From Escherichia phage HY02, in sequence record KM092515: a stretch of DNA of 64,000 nucleotides. One strand, 5' to 3'. Shown here in pieces: positions 25,341 to 54,299 of the stretch (its first letter is position 1; each line of letters begins with the position of its first letter). The translations under genes and the position numbers were made by a program. The notes beneath the pieces are model-generated. The model saw only the letters and a list, made by a program, of their open reading frames with translations. It was not told where the DNA came from and searched no databases.

Positions 25341-25417
25341 CTCTGTTTAGCTCAGCTTGGTAGAGCGTTCCGTTTGGGGCGGTAAGGCCGGAGGTTCAAG
25401 TCCTCCAACAGAGACCA
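25341..25417 (+). tRNA. tRNA-Pro (UGG)
   Basis: acceptor CTCTGTT/AACAGAG, T-arm GGAGG-TTCAAGT-CCTCC, encoded CCA; anticodon loop TTTGGGG. Confidence 0.55.
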
Positions 25418-25424
25418 AATTAAT

Positions 25425-25502
25425 GTTCCAGTAGACAAAATGGTATAGTCACCACTCTTTCAAAGTGGATATTTGAGGGTTCAAATCCATTCTGGAACGC
25501 CA
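25425..25502 (+). tRNA. tRNA-Glu (UUC)
   Basis: acceptor GTTCCAG/CTGGAAC, anticodon arm CCACT-CTTTCAA-AGTGG, TTCAAAT T-loop with imperfect T-stem. Confidence 0.5.
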
Positions 25503-25509
25503 GTTTTGA

Positions 25510-25582
25510 CAGAAGACCAATTACAGCAAACTTAATCTTATTCATCTGAAGGTAAATCGGACAAAGAAGAGATTTGGTCTGG
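25510..25582 (+). ncRNA. Y-RNA-like element 1 (stem-closed, no tRNA-like domain)
   Basis: 5' CAGAAGACC-AATT...ACAGCAAA and 3' ATTT-GGTCTGG can pair as a terminal stem. Confidence 0.4.
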
Positions 25583-25593
25583 TCATTAAGAAT

Positions 25594-25670
25594 TGCGGGT
25601 ATAGAGAAAGGGCGTCTCACATGTCTCATTAGCATGGTATCGGCAGGTTCGACTCCTGCACCCGCCTCCA
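25594..25670 (+). tRNA. tRNA with CAU anticodon (Met or Ile2), atypical D region
   Basis: T-arm GCAGG-TTCGACT-CCTGC, acceptor TGCGGGT/ACCCGCC with 1-72 mismatch, anticodon arm CATGT-CTCATTA-GCATG, encoded CCA. Confidence 0.4.
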
Positions 25671-25676
25671 ATTTTG

Positions 25677-25736
25677 CAGAAGACCGTATTCAGCAATAAA
25701 CTACTTTTTGCGGATAAAAGAAAAAACACGGTCTGG
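25677..25736 (+). ncRNA. Y-RNA-like element 2
   Basis: 5' CAGAAGACC-GTAT...TCAGCAA and 3' ACAC-GGTCTGG; stem bases co-vary relative to element 1. Confidence 0.4.
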
Positions 25737-25747
25737 CAACGTATTAA

Positions 25748-25821
25748 GGTTAGGAAGCACATGAGGTATGTGCGGTCGCCTGTTAAGCGAATGGCACAGG
25801 GTTCGAATCCCTGACTAACCG
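25748..25821 (+). tRNA. tRNA-Asn (GUU)
   Basis: acceptor GGTTAGG/ACTAACC, D-arm GCAC..GTGC, anticodon loop CTGTTAA, T-arm CAGGG-TTCGAAT-CCCTG. Confidence 0.6.
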
Positions 25822-25832
25822 CAAATTTAAAT

Positions 25833-25920
25833 GTGTCGTTATCCCGTAGATGGTAGCGGTGGGGACTGTAAATCCCTTGTCATTGAGACTCGGTAGGTTC
25901 GACTCCTACACGGCACACCA
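25833..25920 (+). tRNA. tRNA-Tyr (GUA), long variable arm
   Basis: acceptor GTGTCGT/ACGGCAC, anticodon arm GGGGA-CTGTAAA-TCCCT, T-arm GTAGG-TTCGACT-CCTAC, encoded CCA. Confidence 0.6.
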
Positions 25921-25981
25921 ATTTTGAGAGGGCTATTTAGCCCCTCCCTTAAAGGGTTCTTACGAGTATCCTTTAAAGGAG

Positions 25982-26054
25982 CAGAAGACCAAATACAGCA
26001 AGTTATTTAAAATTTCAAGCCAATTCAATTTTGAAAATTTAAAACTTGGTCTGG
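25982..26054 (+). ncRNA. Y-RNA-like element 3 (YrlB-like, no tRNA-like domain)
   Basis: 5' CAGAAGACC-AAAT...ACAGCAAG and 3' CTT-GGTCTGG; interior holds an AT-rich palindrome. Confidence 0.4.
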
Positions 26055-26067
26055 CTCAACAAATTTA

Positions 26068-26199
26068 CAGAAGACCGTTTACAGCAAAACTTAAACAATC
26101 TATTTCTCCGGTAAAGAAAAGGCGAAGGTTCGATTCCTTCACTCGGCAGATGTCGAGTTGGTGTAATGGTAGCACTTAAGATGATAAACAACGGTCTGG
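26068..26199 (+). ncRNA. Y-RNA-like element 4 (YrlA-like) with permuted tRNA-like domain
   Basis: terminal stem AGACCGTT/AACGGTCT; internally T-arm GAAGG-TTCGATT-CCTTC (26124-26140), acceptor-like helix ACTCGGC/GTCGAGT capped by AGAT (26141-26158), D-arm GTGT-AATGGTA-GCAC (26161-26175); T-arm precedes D-arm. Confidence 0.55.
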
Positions 26200-26204
26200 T
26201 AATT

Positions 26205-26339
26205 ATCTTTGTAGATAAGTTATTAAGCTTACCTGTGAGTATGCGACCACAAAGGTGAAAGGGTAAATTCTAGATTTAAACCCAAAAAGACACATCGCTA
26301 CAGACCTTAAGCAAGTCTGGGTAGCTTATCTACAAAGAT
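26205..26339 (+). repeat. structured element closed by a perfect 15-bp inverted repeat
   Basis: ATCTTTGTAGATAAG (26205-26219) and CTTATCTACAAAGAT (26325-26339) flank about 105 nt containing hairpin CAGAC-CTTAAGCAA-GTCTG. Confidence 0.5.
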
Positions 26340-26347
26340 AATTTAAT

Positions 26348-26423
26348 GGAAGTGTAGCAGAATGGTGATGCGGCAGACTTTTAATCTGACAGGCGATGGG
26401 TTCGAATCCCTCCACTTCTACCA
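26348..26423 (+). tRNA. tRNA-Lys (UUU)
   Basis: acceptor GGAAGTG/CACTTCT, anticodon stem CAGA/TCTG with loop CTTTTAA, encoded CCA; T-stem has two mismatches shared with the CUU paralogue. Confidence 0.5.
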
Positions 26424-26427
26424 ATAT

Positions 26428-26504
26428 GGTTCAGTCGCAGATAAGGTAATGCAAGGGTCTCATAAGCCCTATGAATGTGGGTTCGATTCCCATCTGAACC
26501 TCCA
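26428..26504 (+). tRNA. tRNA-Met (CAU)
   Basis: acceptor GGTTCAG/CTGAACC, anticodon arm AGGGT-CTCATAA-GCCCT, T-arm GTGGG-TTCGATT-CCCAT, encoded CCA. Confidence 0.65.
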
Positions 26505-26505
26505 A

Positions 26506-26581
26506 GCTGGTATAGTTAAGAAGGTTATAACACTCCCCTGATAAGGGAACATCGGTGGTTCGATTCCACCTACCAGTACCA
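26506..26581 (+). tRNA. tRNA-Ile (GAU)
   Basis: acceptor GCTGGTA/TACCAGT, D-arm GTTA..TAAC, anticodon loop CTGATAA, T-arm GGTGG-TTCGATT-CCACC, encoded CCA. Confidence 0.65.
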
Positions 26582-26596
26582 ATTTCAATAAAGTTG

Positions 26597-26625
26597 TTGA
26601 CATTGAGATGTGACTACTTTATAGT
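26597..26625 (+). promoter_or_regulatory. internal sigma70-like promoter within the tRNA cluster
   Basis: TTGACA, 17-bp spacer, TATAGT. Confidence 0.5.
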
Positions 26626-26828
26626 AACCTTAGTTTTCGTTGCGTAGCGTCTATTTTGCAAATTTAAAATAAATGCAAACGACAATGTTTTTCTGGCAGT
26701 AGCTTGATAGGCTAAACACCAGTGAGGTCTTCCAATCCCTCATCAAAGAATTTGGCGTACTCGCCCACGGTATGATTAATAAGGTGGGCATCTTTAAGGG
26801 CTTTCTAAGAGAGTCTTTAAAGATTAAT

Positions 26829-26905
26829 GCACCCTTAGTTCAATTGGATAGAGCAACGGTCTTCTAAATCGTTAGTTACAGGTTCGAATCCTGTAGGGTG
26901 TGCCA
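26829..26905 (+). tRNA. tRNA-Arg (UCU)
   Basis: acceptor GCACCCT/AGGGTGT, anticodon arm ACGGT-CTTCTAA-ATCGT, T-arm ACAGG-TTCGAAT-CCTGT, encoded CCA. Confidence 0.65.
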
Positions 26906-27047
26906 ATTAGTTAGCAGATTACTTAGACGACCTAAGCGGGTCTTCCTGTAGGGAGGTGGTCTGTATCTCATGTTTTCCAGAACATGTAAATAATCTGAGA
27001 AGGGGCTTTACAGTGTTGAGATAATACGGTAAGCTTCGAATTATAGT

Positions 27048-27130
27048 ATGGGACGATGTTAAGACTCTAAGGCATGAGCAACGGCCTCCAAAACCGTTTC
27101 AAAGGGGTTCAACTCCTCCGTCCCATGCCA
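27048..27130 (+). tRNA. tRNA-like gene, possibly Trp (CCA); oversized D region
   Basis: acceptor ATGGGAC/GTCCCAT, T-loop TTCAACT, anticodon-like loop CTCCAAA, encoded CCA; 83 nt and D-arm not foldable by eye. Confidence 0.35.
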
Positions 27131-27143
27131 AAGTCTTATTAGG

Positions 27144-27231
27144 GGTAGGTAGCGGCTAATGGTAGCCAAACTGTCTTGAAAACAGTTGCCACTGTAGAGA
27201 TACGGTGAGGGTTCGACTCCTTTACTTACCG
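27144..27231 (+). tRNA. tRNA-Ser (UGA), long variable arm
   Basis: acceptor GGTAGGT/ACTTACC, D-stem GGC/GCC, anticodon arm AACTGT-CTTGAAA-ACAGTT, T-loop TTCGACT. Confidence 0.55.
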
Positions 27232-27489
27232 CCTAATAAGATTTTAAAGCCAAGCTTCATTCGGATGTTGCTTTGGTATCCCTCGTGTATTGTCGTACAC
27301 ACTGATAAAACACCTAGTAGGTGTCACGGAGAAGAGATAATATCAAGCTCTCCAAAGGTTCTAGTCACCGGATTAAACAAGACTATGCAAAGGCCTTTTT
27401 AGGTCTTTTTAGAGGGCTTCTAAGGTTATTACGGCTTGTTGTGGAACCTTGTTGCTTAGGTTCTTAGAAGTTCTCTAAAAAGATTTAAT

Positions 27490-27567
27490 GGGAGATTGAC
27501 GGTAATTGGTAAACCTACCATCCTTAGAAGTTGGTGTTTGAGGGTTCGAATCCCTTGTCTCCCACCA
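27490..27567 (+). tRNA. tRNA with UAG anticodon (Leu-type) but short variable arm
   Basis: acceptor GGGAGAT/GTCTCCC, T-arm GAGGG-TTCGAAT-CCCTT, anticodon loop CTTAGAA, encoded CCA. Confidence 0.4.
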
Positions 27568-27574
27568 AATTAAT

Positions 27575-27650
27575 GCAGGTGTAGCAAAATGGTTATGCGG
27601 CTGACTCTTAATCAGTAAGACGATGGGTTCAATTCCCTCCACCTGTACCA
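27575..27650 (+). tRNA. tRNA-Lys (CUU)
   Basis: acceptor GCAGGTG/CACCTGT, anticodon stem CTGA/TCAG with loop CTCTTAA, encoded CCA; body paralogous to 26348-26423. Confidence 0.5.
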
Positions 27651-27656
27651 AACAAT

Positions 27657-27732
27657 GGGGTCATAGTTTATATGGTTAAAATTCGAGTTTTGCAAACTTG
27701 GGAACTGAGTTCAATTCTCAGTGACTCCACCA
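27657..27732 (+). tRNA. tRNA-Ala (UGC)
   Basis: acceptor GGGGTCA/TGACTCC, anticodon loop TTTGCAA, T-arm CTGAG-TTCAATT-CTCAG, encoded CCA. Confidence 0.6.
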
Positions 27733-27738
27733 ATTAGT

Positions 27739-27813
27739 GCATCCATAGTTTAAACGGGAAAATTACAGTCTTCCAAACTGAGGTTGAGGGTTCGATTCCC
27801 TCTGGATGCTCCA
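27739..27813 (+). tRNA. tRNA-Gly (UCC)
   Basis: acceptor GCATCCA/TGGATGC, anticodon stem CAGT/ACTG with loop CTTCCAA, T-arm GAGGG-TTCGATT-CCCTC, encoded CCA. Confidence 0.65.
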
Positions 27814-27820
27814 AATTAAT

Positions 27821-27896
27821 GCTCCTATCGTATAATTGGCTATTACGGTTGCCTTGTAAGCAACTTATCAGGGTTCGAATCCTTGTGGGAGCACCA
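27821..27896 (+). tRNA. tRNA-Thr (UGU)
   Basis: acceptor GCTCCTA/TGGGAGC, anticodon arm GTTGC-CTTGTAA-GCAAC, T-arm CAGGG-TTCGAAT-CCTTG, encoded CCA. Confidence 0.7.
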
Positions 27897-27993
27897 ATTT
27901 AGAGGTCAAGTGAAAGACCGCTTTGAGTCAACTGAAGACCGTAACAAATTCCACGGAGTTGAGTTAGCGGCACAACTTCAGACCTCTTTTCAC

Positions 27994-28068
27994 ACTCGCT
28001 TAGTTTATATGGTAAAACATCACCCTTACAAGATGAAGAAAAAGGTTCAAGTCCTTTAGTGAGTACCA
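27994..28068 (+). tRNA. tRNA-Val (UAC)
   Basis: acceptor ACTCGCT/AGTGAGT, anticodon loop CTTACAA, T-arm AAAGG-TTCAAGT-CCTTT, encoded CCA. Confidence 0.6.
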
Positions 28069-28069
28069 T

Positions 28070-28147
28070 GTTCCAGTATCCCAATTGGCAGAGGATGCAA
28101 GCTCAAACCTTGTACTAGTGACGGTTCGAATCCGTCTTGGAACACCA
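28070..28147 (+). tRNA. tRNA with CAA anticodon (Leu-type) but short variable arm
   Basis: acceptor GTTCCAG/TTGGAAC, anticodon arm GCAAG-CTCAAAC-CTTGT, T-arm GACGG-TTCGAAT-CCGTC, encoded CCA. Confidence 0.45.
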
Positions 28148-28152
28148 ATTTT

Positions 28153-28228
28153 GCAGGATTAGTTCAAATGGATAGAGCAACAGTCTACGAAGCTGTTAAT
28201 AGGGGTTCGAATCCCTTATCCTGCGCCA
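28153..28228 (+). tRNA. tRNA-Arg (ACG)
   Basis: acceptor GCAGGAT/ATCCTGC, anticodon arm ACAGT-CTACGAA-GCTGT, T-arm AGGGG-TTCGAAT-CCCTT, encoded CCA. Confidence 0.65.
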
Positions 28229-28247
28229 ATTTAAAGAGGCTATTTAA

Positions 28248-28805
28248 ATGAGATACTTGAAGTATGCTTCATGGATTTTCTTAGCTTTGCTAGAACCATT
28301 GGCAGCAATCTTAGCAGTTATCTTAGCACCTTTTGTAGTTCCATTTTACAGTGAGAAGAAAGGACACTTACCTTTTGGATTCAGATGGATGGAGACATAT
28401 GACAACCTGATTGATGGTGATGAAGGTCACGTTAAAAGATGGGCTAAGATTAGAAAGATTGGTAAGCTTGGTGTCTATTTGCAGAGAGTTGGATGGCTCT
28501 GGAGAAACAAAGCTTATAACTTCTCTTACCATGTGTTAGGAAGAGATGTAAAAGATGTTACTAAGTGGAAAGGTAATATCAACGTAAGTTCTGACCCTGA
28601 AGATAATCAGACAGGTTATCTCCTAATGTGGAACAGTAATGCTTGGGGATTATTCGCTTTTATCCCATCAATTAAAGTCTTTGGTAAACAATTCTACTGG
28701 AGAATTTATGTTGGATGGAAGCTAAAAAGTGTTGTCCCAGAAGAAAGAGCATTCTCAAGGGAAAGAGTTATGTTGGCATTCTTTATTCATCCACTGAGAA
28801 AGTAA
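28248..28805 (+). CDS. hypothetical membrane protein embedded in the tRNA cluster
   Basis: 185-aa ORF with N-terminal hydrophobic helix (IFLALLEPLAAILAVILAPFVVPF); lies between tRNA-Arg and tRNA-Gln. Confidence 0.5.
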   Translation: MRYLKYASWIFLALLEPLAAILAVILAPFVVPFYSEKKGHLPFGFRWMETYDNLIDGDEGHVKRWAKIRKIGKLGVYLQRVGWLWRNKAYNFSYHVLGRDVKDVTKWKGNINVSSDPEDNQTGYLLMWNSNAWGLFAFIPSIKVFGKQFYWRIYVGWKLKSVVPEERAFSRERVMLAFFIHPLRK

Positions 28806-28813
28806 AGATTTAA

Positions 28814-28889
28814 AGGGGATTAGTTTACAAGGTTAAAACCTCGGTCTTTGAAATCGAAGAAGTTGGTTCAATTCCAACATCCCCCGCCA
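28814..28889 (+). tRNA. tRNA-Gln (UUG)
   Basis: acceptor AGGGGAT/ATCCCCC with unpaired 1-72, D-arm GTTT..AAAC, anticodon arm TCGGT-CTTTGAA-ATCGA, T-arm GTTGG-TTCAATT-CCAAC, encoded CCA. Confidence 0.65.
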
Positions 28890-28891
28890 AT

Positions 28892-28970
28892 GCTCCATTA
28901 CTCCAATTGGCAGAGAGGCCAGACTTAAAATCTGTGTTATGTATCGGTTCGAATCCGATATGGAGTACCA
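28892..28970 (+). tRNA. tRNA with UAA anticodon (Leu-type), atypical architecture
   Basis: acceptor GCTCCAT/ATGGAGT (alternative TACTCCA/TGGAGTA), anticodon stem CAGA/TCTG with loop CTTAAAA, T-arm ATCGG-TTCGAAT-CCGAT, encoded CCA. Confidence 0.45.
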
Positions 28971-28975
28971 AATTT

Positions 28976-29051
28976 AGCGGTATAGCATAACTGGCAATGC
29001 AGCAGTCTCTGAAGCTGTCTTATTAAGGTTCAAATCCTTATGCCGCTGCCA
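28976..29051 (+). tRNA. tRNA-Gln (CUG)
   Basis: acceptor AGCGGTA/TGCCGCT (A1-U72), D-arm GCAT..ATGC, anticodon arm GCAGT-CTCTGAA-GCTGT, T-arm TAAGG-TTCAAAT-CCTTA, encoded CCA. Confidence 0.55.
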
Positions 29052-29082
29052 CTTCTAAGGATTCTTACGAGAGTCCTTAGAA

Positions 29083-29158
29083 GTGGCCTTATCATAAATG
29101 GTAATGACCCATGCTGTGAACATGGTCTATACGGGTTCAAATCCCGTAGGTCACCCCA
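29083..29158 (+). tRNA. tRNA-His (GUG)
   Basis: acceptor GTGGCCT/AGGTCAC, anticodon arm CCATG-CTGTGAA-CATGG, T-arm ACGGG-TTCAAAT-CCCGT, encoded CCA. Confidence 0.7.
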
Positions 29159-29163
29159 ATTTA

Positions 29164-29240
29164 TAGTCCAAGTAGCTTATATGGTTAAAGCGCGTGTCTG
29201 AAAAACATGAGAAGAGGGTTCAAATCCCACTGGACTACCA
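29164..29240 (+). tRNA. tRNA-Phe (GAA)
   Basis: acceptor TAGTCCA/TGGACTA, D-stem GCTT/AAGC, anticodon arm CGTGT-CTGAAAA-ACATG, TTCAAAT T-loop; spacing between acceptor and D-stem is non-canonical. Confidence 0.5.
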
Positions 29241-29256
29241 ATTTCAAAGGTGCTTA

Positions 29257-29991
29257 ATGAAAGAGATGACAGAACAAGGTAAGGAGATTTTTAATCTCTT
29301 AAAAACTGGTAAAGGGTTTTCTAACCCCCTTATTACTGGTGCAGCAGTTCTCGGTGGAACCGTAGCTGCCTCTACATCACTTGTAAGCTCTATTAGCTCT
29401 GTATCAGACCCTACAGTAAAGGATAAGCTTGTTGCTGCTGGACTTACAACAGTTCTGCTTAACAGCTTTACCACGAGTCTGACAAGCACTACATCAACTA
29501 CCAAAACACTAACAGATTACGGTCAAAAGTCCATTGATGAGTTTTCATCACGTATGCAGGTAGCAAAAGGTTACTCTAATGTTATGGGTGCAGCAGGTGA
29601 ACAAGTTGGCTGTACACCATTTAGTGGTATTATGGGTGTTGCTACAGAGTATGGTCAAAAAGCTATTGATACGATTAACAGTGCACTAGATAGTGTTAAT
29701 GGTGTGTTAAGTGACTTACAAGATGCTATTGACAAAGGTCTTGATACTATTTCTGATTTAGCTGAGCAAGCTGTTAGTAAGATTAATGAAGGTATTTCAA
29801 AAATTACAGCTTATGCAGATGAAGTTGTGCAGATGATTGAAGAAGAAGCTGCTCTTATTGCAGAGTACCTTAAAACGAATATCAATGGGTTCTTAGCAGG
29901 TATCTTACCAGACTGGTTTGATGATGCTTGTAAAACTGGTGTGATTGACACTATTGCAACACCAGAAATGAAGAACGCATTACAGAAATAA
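29257..29991 (+). CDS. hypothetical Ser/Thr-rich protein
   Basis: ORF track start 29194 overlaps tRNA-Phe; in-frame ATG at 29257 follows GGTGCTTA, the same context as the terminase start. Confidence 0.5.
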   Translation: MKEMTEQGKEIFNLLKTGKGFSNPLITGAAVLGGTVAASTSLVSSISSVSDPTVKDKLVAAGLTTVLLNSFTTSLTSTTSTTKTLTDYGQKSIDEFSSRMQVAKGYSNVMGAAGEQVGCTPFSGIMGVATEYGQKAIDTINSALDSVNGVLSDLQDAIDKGLDTISDLAEQAVSKINEGISKITAYADEVVQMIEEEAALIAEYLKTNINGFLAGILPDWFDDACKTGVIDTIATPEMKNALQK

Positions 29992-29992
29992 T

Positions 29993-30085
29993 GGAAGATT
30001 AACCCTAAAAGGTAAGGGAGCAGTTTGCTAAACTGCCAGTAGCTGAGAAATCGGTGTACCAGTTCAAGTCTGGTATCTTCCTCCA
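29993..30085 (+). tRNA. tRNA-Ser (GCU), long variable arm
   Basis: acceptor GGAAGAT/ATCTTCC, D-stem CCC/GGG, anticodon arm GCAGT-TTGCTAA-ACTGC, T-arm ACCAG-TTCAAGT-CTGGT, encoded CCA. Confidence 0.65.
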
Positions 30086-30089
30086 ATTT

Positions 30090-30165
30090 GAATCCGTGAC
30101 AGAAATGGCTATGTGCCTGTCTGCAAAACAGGTTTATAAGGGTTCGAGTCCCTTCGGATTCTCCA
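30090..30165 (+). tRNA. tRNA-Cys (GCA)
   Basis: acceptor GAATCCG/CGGATTC, anticodon arm CCTGT-CTGCAAA-ACAGG, T-arm AAGGG-TTCGAGT-CCCTT, encoded CCA. Confidence 0.65.
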
Positions 30166-41867: not shown

Positions 41868-47257
<5,390 letters not shown>

Positions 47258-48729: not shown

Positions 48730-49584
48730 ATGTTTGAAAAGATTGATAGTGTTTATTACAAAACACTTGATGAAAGGACTGTAACACAGTTTAAAGATAA
48801 ATTTATCTATACAAGTATCTTGAAAGCAATCACTGATGAATTACAAACTCTAGAGGATGTTTGCTGGCAGATGCACACAGAGAGAAATATCAGGACGTCA
48901 GTAGGCCAACAACTTGATAACATTGGCTCACTGATTAAAGTTCCTAGACCTTTAGGTGCAGATGATGAAACATATAGGGCTATGCTTTATATTCAAATCT
49001 TCCTAAGACGCTCTGACACCACCCCAACATTCTTGCAAAAAGCAATTATGACGCTATACGGTGCAACTTTCTCTCAGATTTTTGAGCATATTACTCCTAA
49101 GACTGGTGGTATCGTTATCCGTATCAACACTAGAAAAAGCGTTCTAGATGCTGCATATACACTATCAAAGATTTCTGCAACAACTACTGGCTCCGCTGTT
49201 ATCTTAAGAGATGTTACTTTAAATGGGACTGCTTGGACACCTGTAGAGGTTGCTGATTCATCACTTGCTATTGTTGATGATAAAGAGAACTGGTTTGTAA
49301 CTGATGCTAACAGGGGTCTTGTCACAAATAACACTGGTGGCTCTCTGGAGTCCAACTTAGTAGGTAGTCTTGCAGATGCTGGTGTTATTGATGGTTACTT
49401 TAGGGTTGACAGAACAGCAAACTCACAGAGTGATGATTATATGACTGTAGATAGGTCCAATAATAGTGGCTATTTCATCGTTGGTAAAGAAGCTATTGCA
49501 GGTGGTGCATATGGAATCATGGCTGAGGTTGCACAAATTGTCAAAGGCAGAAAAGATAAATCACAACAAGAAGGAAATTCTTAA
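48730..49584 (+). CDS. baseplate or tail-fibre attachment protein (gpI-like, by position)
   Basis: 284-aa ORF between J-like and fibre genes. Confidence 0.4.
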
Positions 49585-49886
49585 TGGCAGTTTTAAATTG
49601 GTCTACAAATGAAGTAGATACTGATGGTAACCAGTTAAAAGTTTTACCACCACCGGAAGTTCAAGAGACAGGTCTTTTAAAGGGTGAACCTATGGGTAGA
49701 CAGTGGTTCAACTATATTATCAACTACCTGCTTAATAAAGTAAACGGCACTGTTGGTGAAGTTCGCTCATATGCAACTCAGCAACCAGATTTAGTAGCCA
49801 ATGGCTGGAAACTAATTAAGTCTGAGACAGGGACTGCAACAACAAGTACAAAGAACCTTTACACATATGAATATGTAGGAGCTTAA
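49584..49886 (+). CDS. hypothetical tail-associated protein
   Basis: 100-aa ORF. Confidence 0.4.
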
Positions 49887-49888
49887 TA

Positions 49889-51064
49889 ATGGCAGTCGGT
49901 GAAATTCAAATTAGTGCCTTGCCACAAGCGACATTACCTGTTGATTTAAGTGATATCTTCCATCTTAAGCAAGGTGTTGAGGATAAAAGATGTACGCTTG
50001 AACAGTTGTTAGCACCTCACGCATCTTTGAGGAATAATCCTCATGGTGTAACCAAATCACAAGTGGGTCTTGATAATGTTATTAACTCTCTTCAATTAGT
50101 TGCAGCTAATAACTTGTCAGACATTGTGAATGTTGCTGAGGCAAGAGCAAATCTACAAATTATGTCGTCAGAGGAAGTGAATAACTTAATTCAGCAACAT
50201 ATTGACGACAAAAGTAACCCACACAATACAACGAAAGCACAGGTCGGTTTAAGTAATGTTCAGAACTGGACAACATCTAATCTGTACAATGAAGATGCTG
50301 ATAAGTACGCCACCGCGAGAGCAGTGAATAATTTATACAAAGCTATTCAAGCATCATATCCAGTAGGGACTATTCATCTATCTGTTAACTCTGCCAACCC
50401 ATCCACTTACTTGCTTTGTGGAGGTACTTGGGAGTTAGTTTCTAAAGGTAGAGCACTAGTTGGTTACGATACAGATTCTAGACCTGTTGGTTCAATGTTT
50501 GGTTCTCAGACTGTAGCATTAACGAATAATAATTTACCAGCACACACACACTCTATCTATCTAACAGGTGGTGGTCATACACACTCTGCAAGTGTATCTA
50601 TCTCTAGTTTTGATTATGGTTCAAAGAGTACATCAACTTTTGACTACGGTACAAAAACGACTAATAGTGCTGGTGCTCATACTCACACGTTTAGTGGTAC
50701 AACAAGTAATGCTGGTAACCACAACCACAGAGTACCTATGAGGGGTAATGATAGGGGTGGTACAAATGCTATTACTGCATCTGCTGATGCTGGTGCTGGT
50801 AATGCTATGTATACTGATTTAGCTGGTGCTCACACCCATAGCTTCTCAGGCACAACTGCATCATCTGGTGCTCATAGCCATACTCTTGCAATTGGTGCTC
50901 ACAGCCACACTGTTAATATTGGTTCACACAGTCATACGGGCACTGTTACTGTTTCTAGCTCTGAGCATACACACTCAGGGACATCTGGTTCTGTTGGTGG
51001 TGGTCAAGCTTTCAGTGTTGAGCAGCCATCTTTTGTAGTATATGTGTGGCAGAGAACAGCTTAA
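49889..51064 (+). CDS. tail fibre protein with C-terminal HxH repeats
   Basis: C-terminal AHTHS, GHTHSAS, AHTHTFSG, NHNHRV, AHTHSFSG, AHSHTLAIGAHSHTVNIGSHSHTG, EHTHSG repeats as in metal-binding fibre tips. Confidence 0.7.
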   Translation: MAVGEIQISALPQATLPVDLSDIFHLKQGVEDKRCTLEQLLAPHASLRNNPHGVTKSQVGLDNVINSLQLVAANNLSDIVNVAEARANLQIMSSEEVNNLIQQHIDDKSNPHNTTKAQVGLSNVQNWTTSNLYNEDADKYATARAVNNLYKAIQASYPVGTIHLSVNSANPSTYLLCGGTWELVSKGRALVGYDTDSRPVGSMFGSQTVALTNNNLPAHTHSIYLTGGGHTHSASVSISSFDYGSKSTSTFDYGTKTTNSAGAHTHTFSGTTSNAGNHNHRVPMRGNDRGGTNAITASADAGAGNAMYTDLAGAHTHSFSGTTASSGAHSHTLAIGAHSHTVNIGSHSHTGTVTVSSSEHTHSGTSGSVGGGQAFSVEQPSFVVYVWQRTA

Positions 51065-51073
51065 TTTCTTTAC

Positions 51074-51095
51074 AGGGGCTTTGTAGCCCCTTTTA
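51074..51095 (+). terminator. intrinsic terminator (weak U-tract)
   Basis: AGGGGCT-TTGT-AGCCCCT followed by TTTTAAG. Confidence 0.5.
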
Positions 51096-51110
51096 AGAGG
51101 AAAATTTATA

Positions 51111-53654
51111 ATGGCAGATTACAAATTGAGTCAATTAAACTCAATCGACACAATTCGTTCAGAAGACCTATTGCACATCAGAGTTAAGAAAAGACCTGAA
51201 ATGCTGGGTGATGAAGACCGTAGAATGACCTATCAAGACTTCTTAGCTTCCTTCAAACTAGAAAGGTTTGTTCAGATTGCTGGGAGTACTATGACGGGAG
51301 ACTTAGGTATTGTCAAGTTACTTTACGGTGGCAAGGCTGTATTTGACCCTACAGGCTCTTCTGAGATTACTATTGGGGATATTTTAAAGACTTTTAAAAT
51401 TAACTCAAATGGTCTTAAACTCACTATTGCAGATGCCACAAGGTCGGCAACTGTTTATCATACTTTGAATAAACCAAGTCCTAATGAACTTGGCATGAGA
51501 ACTAATGAAGAGAATGATGCAAGATATGCAAGGCTTGCTGTTACAAATAACTTCAGTATTAGGCAAGCAATTATAACTGATGGTGAGCAGTTAACTCTTA
51601 AGAAGGCAACCAATGCAGGTGCTTCATATATTCAAGGTAGAGATGCTAATAACCAGCAAACTTGGTATGTTGGACAGGGAAATGCAAACAGTACTAATGT
51701 TTATTTGTACAATCATGCTACTGGTGCAATGTTGACCCTTGATGCAACAGCAGCATTTAACAAGTCACTTAGAATCACTGGTCAAGTTCAACCTTCGGAT
51801 TTCTCTAACTTAGATGCTAGGTACTTCACTCAGACAGTCGCTAATCAGAGATTTGCACAGTTAGCTGCTAATAATAATTTTACTGGAACAAACACGTTTA
51901 GTAGAAACCTACTTATCATCAGTGACAGTGCTGCTTTAAGGTTGAAAAATGCAACAGCTAGCTCACTATTCATTCAGGGTGTTGACTCCCAGAATACTAA
52001 CAGGTGGTATGTAGGAAACGGGGATAACACAGCCTCTGTGCTGCTACACAACTATGTACACGGCTCAAATATCAGGCTTGATAATGGTTATATCTCAGTC
52101 AACCAGAACTTCAGAATCACTGGTCAAGTTCAACCTTCAGATTGGGCTAACATTGACTCTAGATATATTCCAGCAGCTACTTTGAATAATCTTGCTAAGA
52201 TTAATGCTAAGAATACTTTTTCTCAAGGTCAGATTATTAAGGTTGACGGAGAGGTTATTAGACTTCAGGGGGTAAATGATACTGGTGGTTTGTTCTTGCA
52301 AGGTTATACTTCTGATGGTACTAAGAAGTGGTTTATGGGTACTAATGCTTCAGGCAACTTTACTATCAGGGAGATGGTGTTAGGTACTGAACTGTCTCTT
52401 AGAGAGAACTATATCCAGTTCAATAAGAATGTAACAATTAATGGGCAGGTTCAACCACAAGATTGGGCTAACATTGATGGGAGATACTACAACAAATCAT
52501 CTGCTGATAGTAGATATCTGAGGGTAAGAAGCACTAACTTTAACACTAGTAATGTGGAGAAATGGGCTAAGATTGCAACTGTTACTATGCGGCAGGCAAC
52601 ATCGACAGCGGTAATTGAGTTGTTTGGTGGGTCTGGGTTCAACTATGGTGCATATAACCAAGCATGTAAAACAGAGATTGTTATTAGAGCAGGGAATAAT
52701 AGTCCAAAAGGCTTAAATGTTGTTGCATGGAAAAACTCACCGAATGGTGTTGTGATGGAAATTGGGCATGTTAATACATCTGGTGATAATTATGACATCT
52801 ACTTAAAAGCTGGTCCCTACCAAAATGCTACGACAGCTAGGGTTCAGTCATCATCTAATGCAACAGTGCAGTTGTTTGAGACTCCAGAGACATCTGACAG
52901 TGCTCCATCTGGCTATGTTGCTGGGACAATTGCTTATTATTATACTAGTCTCTTGAAACCAACCCCTTCAGATATTGGTGCATACACTAAAGCAGAGACT
53001 GACCAGAAGATTGCAGATGCAATTAGTGACTCTACAGACCTGAATAAAATCTATCCAGTAGGTATTGTGACGTGGTTTAACAGTAATGTCAACCCAAACA
53101 CAGCACTTCCTGGGTTAACTTGGACGTACCTGAATAATGGTGTTGGTAGAACTATTAGAATTGCAGCAGCAAACGGTTCAGATGTTGCTACAACTGGTGG
53201 TTCAGACTCTGTAACGTTGTCTGTTGGTAACTTACCTTCACACACGCACAGCTTCTCTGCTACTACTTCATCATTTGACTATGGTACTAAGACTTCTAGC
53301 ACAACTGGTAACCACAACCACAACAGAGGTACTATGGAGATTACTGGTTCATTTGGTTACTTCAGAAGTGACGCTAGTAGCTTCTACACAGCAAGTGGTG
53401 CATTCTACCTCGGTAGTCAGGCAGGTTCTAAAGGGTATACTGGTAACAACTTTACTAATGGTATCCCTGTCAACTTCAACGCATCAAGAAACTGGTCTGG
53501 TGTAACGAATACAACAGGTAACCACAGCCACACTGTTGGTATTGGTGCTCACAGCCACACAGTTAGCGGTAACACAGGTGGTACTGGTTCTGGTTCAGCA
53601 TTTAGTGTTACTAACCAGTTCTATAAGTTAATGGCTTGGGTAAGAACTGCTTAA
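51111..53654 (+). CDS. long tail fibre protein with internal repeats and HxH tip
   Basis: three repeats of roughly 100 aa each carrying ITGQVQPSD(F/W)(S/A)N(L/I)D.RY; C-terminal HTHSFSA, NHNHNRG, NHSHTVGIGAHSHTVSG. Confidence 0.7.
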   Translation: MADYKLSQLNSIDTIRSEDLLHIRVKKRPEMLGDEDRRMTYQDFLASFKLERFVQIAGSTMTGDLGIVKLLYGGKAVFDPTGSSEITIGDILKTFKINSNGLKLTIADATRSATVYHTLNKPSPNELGMRTNEENDARYARLAVTNNFSIRQAIITDGEQLTLKKATNAGASYIQGRDANNQQTWYVGQGNANSTNVYLYNHATGAMLTLDATAAFNKSLRITGQVQPSDFSNLDARYFTQTVANQRFAQLAANNNFTGTNTFSRNLLIISDSAALRLKNATASSLFIQGVDSQNTNRWYVGNGDNTASVLLHNYVHGSNIRLDNGYISVNQNFRITGQVQPSDWANIDSRYIPAATLNNLAKINAKNTFSQGQIIKVDGEVIRLQGVNDTGGLFLQGYTSDGTKKWFMGTNASGNFTIREMVLGTELSLRENYIQFNKNVTINGQVQPQDWANIDGRYYNKSSADSRYLRVRSTNFNTSNVEKWAKIATVTMRQATSTAVIELFGGSGFNYGAYNQACKTEIVIRAGNNSPKGLNVVAWKNSPNGVVMEIGHVNTSGDNYDIYLKAGPYQNATTARVQSSSNATVQLFETPETSDSAPSGYVAGTIAYYYTSLLKPTPSDIGAYTKAETDQKIADAISDSTDLNKIYPVGIVTWFNSNVNPNTALPGLTWTYLNNGVGRTIRIAAANGSDVATTGGSDSVTLSVGNLPSHTHSFSATTSSFDYGTKTSSTTGNHNHNRGTMEITGSFGYFRSDASSFYTASGAFYLGSQAGSKGYTGNNFTNGIPVNFNASRNWSGVTNTTGNHSHTVGIGAHSHTVSGNTGGTGSGSAFSVTNQFYKLMAWVRTA

Positions 53655-53662
53655 TCCCTTGT

Positions 53663-53691
53663 TGACTGATTGTTAAGATGGTGTTAATATT
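53663..53691 (+). promoter_or_regulatory. sigma70-like promoter for the two small membrane-protein genes
   Basis: TTGACT, 17-bp spacer, TAATAT. Confidence 0.45.
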
Positions 53692-53733
53692 CTTTATGGG
53701 TATTCTCACCATCTTGGCTGATGAGGTGATTAA

Positions 53734-53931
53734 ATGCCTACAATCCTAGCAATTCTTCTAAAAAATCTAGGTAGCTTCTTCTGGAAACTCATTTTATCCC
53801 TTCTAAGTGAATACATGATTGAGAAAGTGTTCTTTAAGCTTGCAAGATATCTTGCGAGTAAGACAGACACACCTATTGATGATGAGTTCGTAGATAACTT
53901 AGAAAAAGCTTTTAAGGGGGAGAATAAATGA
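53734..53931 (+). CDS. small membrane protein (holin-like candidate)
   Basis: 65-aa ORF with N-terminal hydrophobic helix and charged C-terminus. Confidence 0.4.
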   Translation: MPTILAILLKNLGSFFWKLILSLLSEYMIEKVFFKLARYLASKTDTPIDDEFVDNLEKAFKGENK

Positions 53932-54299
53932 AGTGGCTAGAGGAAGCTTTTAAAAATAATATTGGTGCAATTGTAGTTGGTATTTTTAGTGTTATTGGGA
54001 TGTATACCACCATGCAAGTTTCGGATGGTAAGCAAGAGGTGTCTATCACAACAAAATTACAGCAGCTAGATAATTACAGTAAATCTAATTACTCAGCTAT
54101 TCGTGATTTACAGTCTGACATGAGATTGCTTCAGTTAGGGATGGAGAACCAGAAAGTTCAGTTAGAGAATGTTAAGGGTGAGAACGCAAAACTTACTAAA
54201 ACTCTTGATAAATTCTCTGACAGTGTGAACAATCTGGCTCAATCAGTATCAGCCTTGCAAGCTATTACTGAAAAGAACACAAAGAATACTGAAAAATAA
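53928..54299 (+). CDS. membrane-anchored coiled-coil protein (spanin or holin-regulator candidate)
   Basis: TM helix IGAIVVGIFSVIGMY followed by heptad-rich domain. Confidence 0.4.
   Translation: MKWLEEAFKNNIGAIVVGIFSVIGMYTTMQVSDGKQEVSITTKLQQLDNYSKSNYSAIRDLQSDMRLLQLGMENQKVQLENVKGENAKLTKTLDKFSDSVNNLAQSVSALQAITEKNTKNTEK

Follow-up and report, generated by a model that had tools for sequence, protein, structure and literature searches.

The homology of the tail fibre proteins gp76 and gp77 of phage Felix O1 to gp37 of phage T4 was reported in 2010 (PMC3185647), and for the fibres of phage VpaE1 gp37 homology followed in 2015 together with lipopolysaccharide (LPS) as receptor (PMC4690856). Patchwork conservation of the long fibre of phage wV8 had already been noted in 2009 (PMC2674420). 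In 2025, cryo-electron microscopy (cryo-EM) of the phages Sf14 and Bas63 showed two fibres, 430 and 630 Angstrom long, that lie folded against the sheath (PMC11821841, PMC12609058). For Bas63 (Escherichia phage JohannRWettstein, Sci Adv 2025), collar-needle-head tips with histidine-x-histidine (HxH) motifs on both fibres have been described, and the long fibre consists of repeated beta-helix domains, counted as five, with unexpected variability (PMC12609058). Here we analyze two adjacent fibre genes of Escherichia phage HY02 (sequence record KM092515) in a stretch of 64,000 nucleotides, below called the window. Both lie on the plus strand, a short open reading frame (ORF) of 391 aa at 49889-51064 and a long one of 847 aa at 51111-53654, and we refer to their products as the short tail fibre (STF) and the long tail fibre (LTF).

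We conclude, with a probability of about 0.9, that these ORFs encode the short and the long host-recognition fibres of a Felix O1-like myophage of the genus Felixounavirus. The two tail-fibre genes that an earlier note had claimed from the letters alone are syntenic orthologues of Bas63 gp26/gp27 and of wV8 gp82/gp83, and GenBank lists both as tail fibres; with the annotated HY02 tail fibre protein the LTF shares 100% identity. The STF is well conserved (98.5% identity to wV8 gp82, 99.5% to vB_EcoM_H12 and 75% to Bas63 gp26), and within 98.5-99.5% it is shared with wV8 and the short fibres of several O157 phages. The LTF is 72.6% identical to its wV8 counterpart and 61% to that of Bas63 over aa 1-475, and the closest other full-length LTF reaches only about 79% at most. 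BLASTP aligned the HY02 and Bas63 long fibres at the N-terminus only; similarity at the C-terminus is nonetheless visible in the Bas63 sequence.

The fibre region is matched by 241 phage records, nearly all of them Felixounavirus with the hosts E. coli, Salmonella and Shigella. The gene order is two wedge proteins, a 100-aa ORF, STF, LTF, two small ORFs and then td/frd (thymidylate synthase and dihydrofolate reductase) on the opposite strand, and it is the same in wV8, JN01 and Bas63. The 100-aa ORF matches over residues 1-100 the "LTF platform protein (gp025)" of the Bas63 baseplate structure (9NDY_S, phmmer, E = 1.9e-57), which as a trimer is the adaptor that carries the long fibre (PMC12609058). 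In the sequence search of the PDB this platform protein was the only match to 9NDY, whose Bas63 fibre chains were not matched. Orthologues of the HY02 fibres are virion components: by mass spectrometry Gp83 was identified in wV8 (PMC2674420), gp77 and, with 9% coverage, gp76 in Felix O1 (PMC3185647), gp74/gp75 in VpaE1 (PMC4690856) and gp52/gp53 in Sf14 (PMC11821841). The Bas63 fibres gp26/gp27 were seen as cryo-EM density (PMC12609058).

Tips of the T4 gp37 type

The earlier note had drawn attention to dense HxH repeats at the ends of both fibres and had compared them to fibre tips that coordinate metal ions. The STF contains nine HxH motifs (aa 219, 230, 264, 278, 315, 329, 338, 347 and 360), which hold 18 of its 24 histidines, and the LTF contains four (aa 711, 735, 805 and 814). 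Shuffling of the residues predicts 1.4 and 0.21 motifs, respectively, and the observed numbers were reached in none of 10,000 shuffles. The enrichment near both C-termini is thus well founded.

The likeness to a metal-coordinating tip is one of homology. With the T4 gp37 tip, whose crystal structure is 2XGF, the STF has a match at E = 9.1e-27, in which its aa 145-362 pair with chain residues 17-227. Six of the seven HxH motifs of T4 gp37 align column for column with the STF motifs 264, 278, 315, 329, 338 and 347; the remaining one is offset by two residues from the STF motif 230, and the STF motifs 219 and 360 are extra. For the LTF the match is weaker (E = 5.6e-7, aa 705-826) and three of the four motifs (735, 805 and 814) are aligned. 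Over the whole tip STF and LTF are paralogous (E = 9e-16). Moreover, the histidines of the HxH motifs are the tip positions with the highest conservation. Among 58 STF homologues with identities down to 39%, H230, H232, H347 and H349 are invariant and H219, H278, H280, H315 and H317 are conserved to at least 90%; in the LTF needle all eight histidines are invariant in 50 homologues. The block between the HxH clusters, by contrast, varies more and has more gaps than any other part of the STF alignment, and in the C-terminal strand G370, Y385, W387 and R389 are again conserved.

The chain of T4 gp37 extends outward, forms a head and returns, and each triplet of HxH motifs binds one iron ion, as relayed in PMC12609058 (its reference 48). 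Since a chain of the gp37 type doubles back, the receptor-binding head should correspond to aa ~281-314 of the STF and aa ~738-804 of the LTF, and for the same reason both C-termini are expected back in the collar. The statement that the fibres end in HxH motifs therefore holds for the linear sequence; physically the tip would be the HxH-poor segment between the clusters. By analogy with gp37 the receptor-binding part would be this head and not the HxH repeats themselves. The AlphaFold2 (AF2) monomer models, which we used for STF and LTF, bear on this topology. In the STF model (mean pLDDT, its confidence score, 65) strands at 222-272 are followed by a low-confidence stretch at 283-311, by further strands (317-365) and by one last strand (381-389), and this order is compatible with a chain that folds back. 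Together, the hypervariable block between the clusters, the conserved C-terminal strand and the order of the predicted strands support the fold-back, albeit inconclusively.

There is a rival interpretation of the STF. Its sole Pfam match is Gp10_C (E = 4e-18), and T4 gp10 chains are matched with E ~3e-6. The STF could accordingly be a baseplate-bound element like gp10 or gp12, deployed late for irreversible binding, with the LTF alone as the true searching fibre. It would fit that the Bas63 short fibre attaches straight to a wedge protein and not to the fibre platform (PMC12609058) and that, according to the BASEL paper, the role of the short fibre in this genus is unexplored. The similarity of the STF to the gp37 tip is, however, far stronger than that to gp10, the STF has a hypervariable head of its own, and its orthologue in Bas63 and Sf14 is a fibre of 430 Angstrom which lies along the sheath like the long fibre and is not folded under the baseplate (PMC12609058, PMC11821841). 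We regard a purely late-acting STF as unlikely and favour a second host-recognition fibre. On the LTF collar Gp10_C scores 26.6 bits, slightly below the cut-off of 27 bits.

A third HxH protein of the tail module is the 207-aa baseplate spike encoded at 46216-46839 (plus strand), with a single His-Thr-His at aa 188-190. In Bas63 the HxH at H188/H190, thus at the same positions, was proposed to bind iron in the piercing apex (PMC12609058).

Shaft repeats and mosaic structure of the long fibre

In the LTF the earlier note had seen three repeats of about 100 aa, each with the motif ITGQVQPSD. There are indeed three copies; the third, INGQVQPQDWANIDGRY, reads INGQVQPQD and deviates from this pattern at two positions. 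The motif starts at aa 222, 336 and 443 (spacing 114 and 107 aa), and the units at aa 136-242, 243-355 and 349-463, each of ~110 aa, are 36-46% identical in pairs. At the DNA level a conserved core of 77 nt recurs at 51747, 52089 and 52410.

The suggestion that the repeats are modular units of a shaft is borne out by the domain searches. PF20744 (gp37_trimer) matches the whole LTF in three stretches (181 bits, E = 3.6e-54), and the isolated repeats score 81.6, 73.7 and 43.2 bits, all of them above the curated cut-off of 21.7 bits. The shaft repeats resemble the solved structure of the pyramid domain of T7 gp17 (4A0T, 7BOZ), to which repeat 2 is similar with E ~1e-6. In the AF2 model each repeat is a block of seven beta strands followed by short helices, and these helices coincide with the conserved connector PSDxxNxDxRY. 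Six D/N-x-R-Y/F motifs mark the connectors of the LTF.

Three GQVQP anchors are found in 114 of 120 close LTF homologues, and the long-fibre records of Felixounavirus and Mooglevirus (Ounavirinae) listed by tblastn have three repeat copies each. Repeats 1 and 2 are closer to the repeat at the same position in other phages than to each other. From this resemblance and from the three copies in the listed records we conclude that the triplication is, as far as sequence comparison tells, ancient, position-specific and a fixed part of the shaft. A recent duplication was considered and rejected: the repeat cores are only 29-41% identical, and repeats 1 and 2 have their best matches in same-position repeats elsewhere.

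Between its conserved connectors the LTF varies strongly. Mean identity is 27-61% inside the repeat cores and ~50% in the head. When 113 fibres were clustered at 85% identity, the N-terminus formed a single type, the three repeat cores fell into 11, 17 and 24 alleles, and five types of the middle domain and 12 of the tip were counted. These modules occur in 63 distinct combinations, and that of HY02 is unique within the set. In windows of 40 aa most blocks of the HY02 LTF nevertheless have a 95-100% match in another fibre, and every block is matched at 85% or more. Judged by these alleles the LTF is a mosaic, of which the module cores and the head are swapped between phages as cassettes. Two classes of tips divide the 120 homologues almost evenly: one has four HxH motifs with a gap of ~70 aa (59, among them HY02 and wV8) and the other six HxH motifs with a gap of 34-48 aa (61, among them Bas63). 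The HY02 head is 60-64% identical to that of the Sf13, Sf14 and Sf17 fibres. In addition, two E. coli phages with genomes of ~170 kb, vB_EcoM-ZQ3 (MW630116.1) and CJY920 (PQ349265.1), carry a head of the HY02 type (53322-53561) with 90% and 73% identity, which suggests that tip cassettes may be exchanged between unrelated phage groups.

The diversity of the shaft could mean that the repeats are more than spacers. In such a fibre the repeat cores would be lateral glycan-binding surfaces of low affinity and the fibre a multivalent receptor binder, which reads the LPS/O-antigen layer along its length and leaves only the final specificity to the gp37-like head. The cores are as rich in alleles as the tip, the connectors between them stay conserved, and according to the Bas63 study, whose authors termed the variability of the shaft domains unexpected, the sheath under these domains is nearly invariant (PMC12609058). 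The recorded hosts speak against this proposal. Ten records have a head with at least 98.8% identity to that of the HY02 LTF, and every one of them comes from a phage with E. coli O157:H7 or ATCC 35150 as its recorded host, whereas the repeat-2 allele does not track the host, since it is shared with at least 95% identity by phages recorded on E. coli O103, O121, O145 and O157 and on Salmonella. Furthermore, in T7 gp17 the tip domain and not the homologous pyramid domain binds the receptor, according to the statement in PMC11821841 that cites Garcia-Doval and van Raaij 2012. Because the head allele tracks O157:H7 and the repeat-2 allele spans hosts, the head rather than the shaft is favoured as the specificity determinant, and we consider glycan binding by the repeats even less probable than the late-acting STF.

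Finally, the tips are biased in composition (the phmmer bias term of the 2XGF match is 31.6), yet the notion that the HxH clusters are low-complexity sequence rich in Gly, Ser, Thr and His with no role in metal binding, and that the repeats are a chance similarity, is effectively refuted by the pattern of conservation, as the motif numbers exceed all shuffles, the histidine columns are invariant though their neighbours vary, the motifs align with HxH motifs that bind iron in the crystal structure (in the account of PMC12609058, its reference 48) and every repeat independently passes the Pfam threshold.

Proposed arrangement and surroundings of the fibre genes

We suggest the following arrangement. 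By analogy with Bas63 and Sf14, each fibre protein would form a homotrimer, and six trimers of each kind would be mounted on the baseplate. The N-terminus of the STF would bind a wedge protein and the LTF would sit on the trimeric platform formed by the product of the 100-aa ORF immediately upstream. The shaft of the LTF is built from three beta modules of the PF20744 or T7 gp17 pyramid type, joined by the conserved helix-turn connectors GQVQPSDxxNxDxRY, and from a gp37-like middle domain. Both fibres would end, as does T4 gp37, in a receptor-binding tip. After the collar each chain might proceed outward in beta strands, form the small variable distal head, return in further strands and finish in the collar. 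The needle would be a six-stranded bundle because each chain runs out and back. At every HxH level six histidines from three chains could hold one metal ion (Fe2+ in T4), so that up to nine ions would be stacked in the STF and up to four in the LTF; these ions would stiffen the needle and fix its register. The variable head between the HxH clusters would contact the receptor, for which the literature on this phage group points to LPS.

Several observations weigh against this arrangement. The STF model is poor in the tip, and in the LTF model aa 616-847 have a pLDDT below 50. Foldseek with the STF model did not retrieve 2XGF; its best matches were pore proteins with long beta hairpins at E ~0.06. 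We infer the trimers and the bound metal of the HY02 fibres from homologues and the literature, and metal binding at the STF motifs 219 and 360 and at the LTF motif 711 is an extrapolation, since T4 gp37 lacks equivalents of these motifs. No receptor for HY02 itself turned up in the literature searched. The Bas63 model, moreover, is only partly transferable, for the middle domain of the HY02 LTF and its large-headed tip with four HxH motifs are different. High confidence in the LTF model is confined to the three repeats and aa 480-610. With the whole LTF chain Foldseek gave tiny TM scores, and usable matches were obtained only at the level of domains (T7 gp17, Mu gp49 and the WceF stalk).

The N-terminal regions of the two fibres carry related motifs, EDKRCT in the STF (aa 31-36, 49979-49996) and EDRRMT in the LTF (aa 35-40, 51213-51230). 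In Sf14 the short fibre has the cysteine-containing EDRKCT at the same position and gp53 has the corresponding EDRKMT, and the authors tie the difference between Cys and Met to different attachment partners in the baseplate (PMC11821841); HY02 thus repeats this contrast. A baseplate-binding domain has likewise been described for the Bas63 short fibre (PMC12609058). Further downstream in the STF, at 50036-50269 (plus strand), the motif NPHxxTKxQVGLxNVxN is present in two copies (aa 50 and 110). Its copy number varies, because the homologue P0171 has extra copies as an insertion. In tblastn the middle beta domain of the LTF shares 37-47% identity with part of gp37 from T-even phages (T2, RB49 and others) and with the fibres of ST64B (Sb24) and SSU5. 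A resemblance of this domain to the adenovirus fibre knob was discarded, as the PDB match was insignificant (E = 0.58) and tblastn gave T-even gp37 shafts instead. The coordinates of all features are collected in Table 1.

Table 1. Features of the HY02 fibre locus (positions in the window; aa, residues of the encoded protein)
Feature	Position	Strand	Remarks
LTF platform protein, 100 aa, orthologue of Bas63 gp25	49584..49886	+	phrog_4141; phmmer against PDB
STF, 391 aa, orthologue of Bas63 gp26, wV8 gp82, Felix O1 gp76	49889..51064	+	phrog_2097 tail fibre, E = 3.6e-138
STF N-terminal region, predicted baseplate binding, aa 1-45	49889..50023	+	strongly conserved in 58 homologues
STF collar, first part, aa ~145-215	50321..50533	+	aligns with 2XGF residues 17-~90 and the C-terminal domain of T4 gp10; AF2 pLDDT 85-89
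STF ascending needle strands, aa 216-280, HxH 219/230/264/278	50534..50728	+	AF2 beta strands 222-272
STF head, aa ~281-314, presumed receptor contact	50729..50830	+	hypervariable, free of HxH; position matches gp37 head; AF2 pLDDT <50 at 283-311
STF descending needle strands, aa 315-365, HxH 315/329/338/347/360	50831..50983	+	
STF C-terminal strand, predicted return to collar, aa 366-391, ...GGGQAFSVEQPSFVVYVWQRTA	50984..51061	+	AF2 strand 381-389, pLDDT 80-86; paralogous to LTF C-terminus
GC-rich hairpin and UUUU between STF and LTF	51074..51094	+	fold -16.8 kcal/mol, z = -3.5
LTF, 847 aa, orthologue of wV8 gp83, Felix O1 gp77, Bas63 gp27	51111..53654	+	phrog_4277 tail fibre, E = 0
LTF N-terminal region, predicted baseplate binding, and proximal region, aa 1-135	51111..51515	+	84-98% mean identity; single 85% cluster
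LTF shaft repeat 1, aa 136-242, ending ITGQVQPSDFSNLDARY	51516..51836	+	PF20744 E = 4.2e-23; AF2 pLDDT 72-86, seven strands
LTF shaft repeat 2, aa 243-355, ending ITGQVQPSDWANIDSRY	51837..52175	+	PF20744 E = 1.2e-20
LTF shaft repeat 3, aa ~349/356-463, ending INGQVQPQDWANIDGRY	52176..52499	+	PF20744 E = 4.2e-11; most variable repeat core
LTF middle beta domain, aa ~476-612	52536..52946	+	AF2 pLDDT 70-85
LTF collar, first part, aa ~645-706	53043..53228	+	paralogous to STF aa 157-215; 99% conserved among homologues
LTF ascending needle, aa 707-737, HxH 711/735	53229..53321	+	
LTF head, aa 738-804	53322..53522	+	large type, paired with needle of four HxH
LTF descending needle, aa 805-817, HxH 805/814	53523..53561	+	both aligned column for column with gp37 HxH motifs
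LTF C-terminal strand, predicted return to collar, aa 818-847, ...SAFSVTNQFYKLMAWVRTA	53562..53651	+	invariant among homologues; aligned to STF C-terminus

The hairpin between the two genes was missed by a scan with a consensus terminator and was found by eye and by folding; the equivalent element of wV8 is annotated as a rho-independent terminator. It may attenuate the expression of the LTF, because in the predicted minimum-energy fold its flanks pair with the LTF ribosome-binding site. Directly after the LTF stop codon, at 53655-53733 (plus strand), there is another strong hairpin (-28.2 kcal/mol, z = -5.5), and none of 200 shuffled sequences folds as well. This one lacks a U tract and overlaps a promoter-like site at 53662-53690 with an extended -10 TG. 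The two small ORFs that follow 3' to the fibre genes (53734-53931, 65 aa, and 53928-54299, 123 aa, both on the plus strand) are conserved across the genus, and the annotation of phage JN01 calls the 123-aa protein a holin. No match to a fibre-chaperone family was found in the adjacent ORFs that were scanned. Elsewhere in the window, 25 tRNA genes are clustered at 25341-30165 (plus strand), a common trait of Felix O1-like genomes, with 22-23 such genes reported in Felix O1 and wV8.

The practical value of the analysis lies in a domain map with cassette boundaries at the conserved GQVQP...D.RY connectors and in a head allele which HY02 has in common only with phages recorded on O157:H7. With such a map, chimeric fibres could be designed for host-range engineering of Felix O1-like biocontrol phages.

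Comparison with described fibres

A long fibre of T4 consists of four proteins (gp34 to gp37) and needs chaperones. In HY02, by contrast, one polypeptide makes up a whole fibre. The tips share with the T4 gp37 tip (2XGF; Bartual et al. 2010) the predicted succession of collar, HxH needle and head as well as the motif FDYGTK; they differ in the number of HxH motifs, seven in T4 gp37 against nine in the STF and four in the LTF, and the heads are unrelated in sequence. T7 gp17 (4A0T) has one copy of a PF20744-type domain followed by a beta-sandwich tip domain, whereas the HY02 LTF has three tandem copies with conserved helix-turn connectors between them and a tip of the gp37 type.

Closer to HY02 is Sf14, a Mooglevirus and thus a member of another genus with lower overall identity. 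It has a similar pair of fibres, gp52 of 391 aa and gp53 of ~790 aa, with T7 gp17-like domains in the long fibre, the same distinction between Cys and Met in the N-terminal motif and a long-fibre head of the HY02 type (60% identical). The Sf14 study places the gp37/C24-like domain in the middle of the fibre and not as a fold-back tip (PMC11821841).

The closest solved relative is Bas63. It belongs to the same genus and has the same gene order and platform protein, its LTF has the same three GQVQP repeats, and both fibres bear collar-needle-head tips with HxH motifs. The STF has nine HxH motifs in HY02 and seven in Bas63. The LTF tip combines four motifs with a head of ~65 aa in HY02, and six motifs with a smaller head in Bas63. 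The middle of the HY02 LTF (aa 476-612) is T-even gp37-like, while Bas63 has a shorter, unrelated module there; the published Bas63 fibre model therefore omits the HY02 middle domain (52536-52946), because it is absent from the Bas63 long fibre. From the AF2 secondary structure we infer that the five domains counted in Bas63 would correspond to the three repeats, the middle domain and a beta block near the N-terminus (aa ~70-116).

In summary, the fibre pair of HY02 is already known in its essentials, since gp37 homology in 2010 and 2015 and the cryo-EM of Bas63 in 2025 have been published for close relatives, and its biology is ordinary. HY02 differs from the solved relative Bas63 only in the number of HxH motifs, the type of the head and the middle module.

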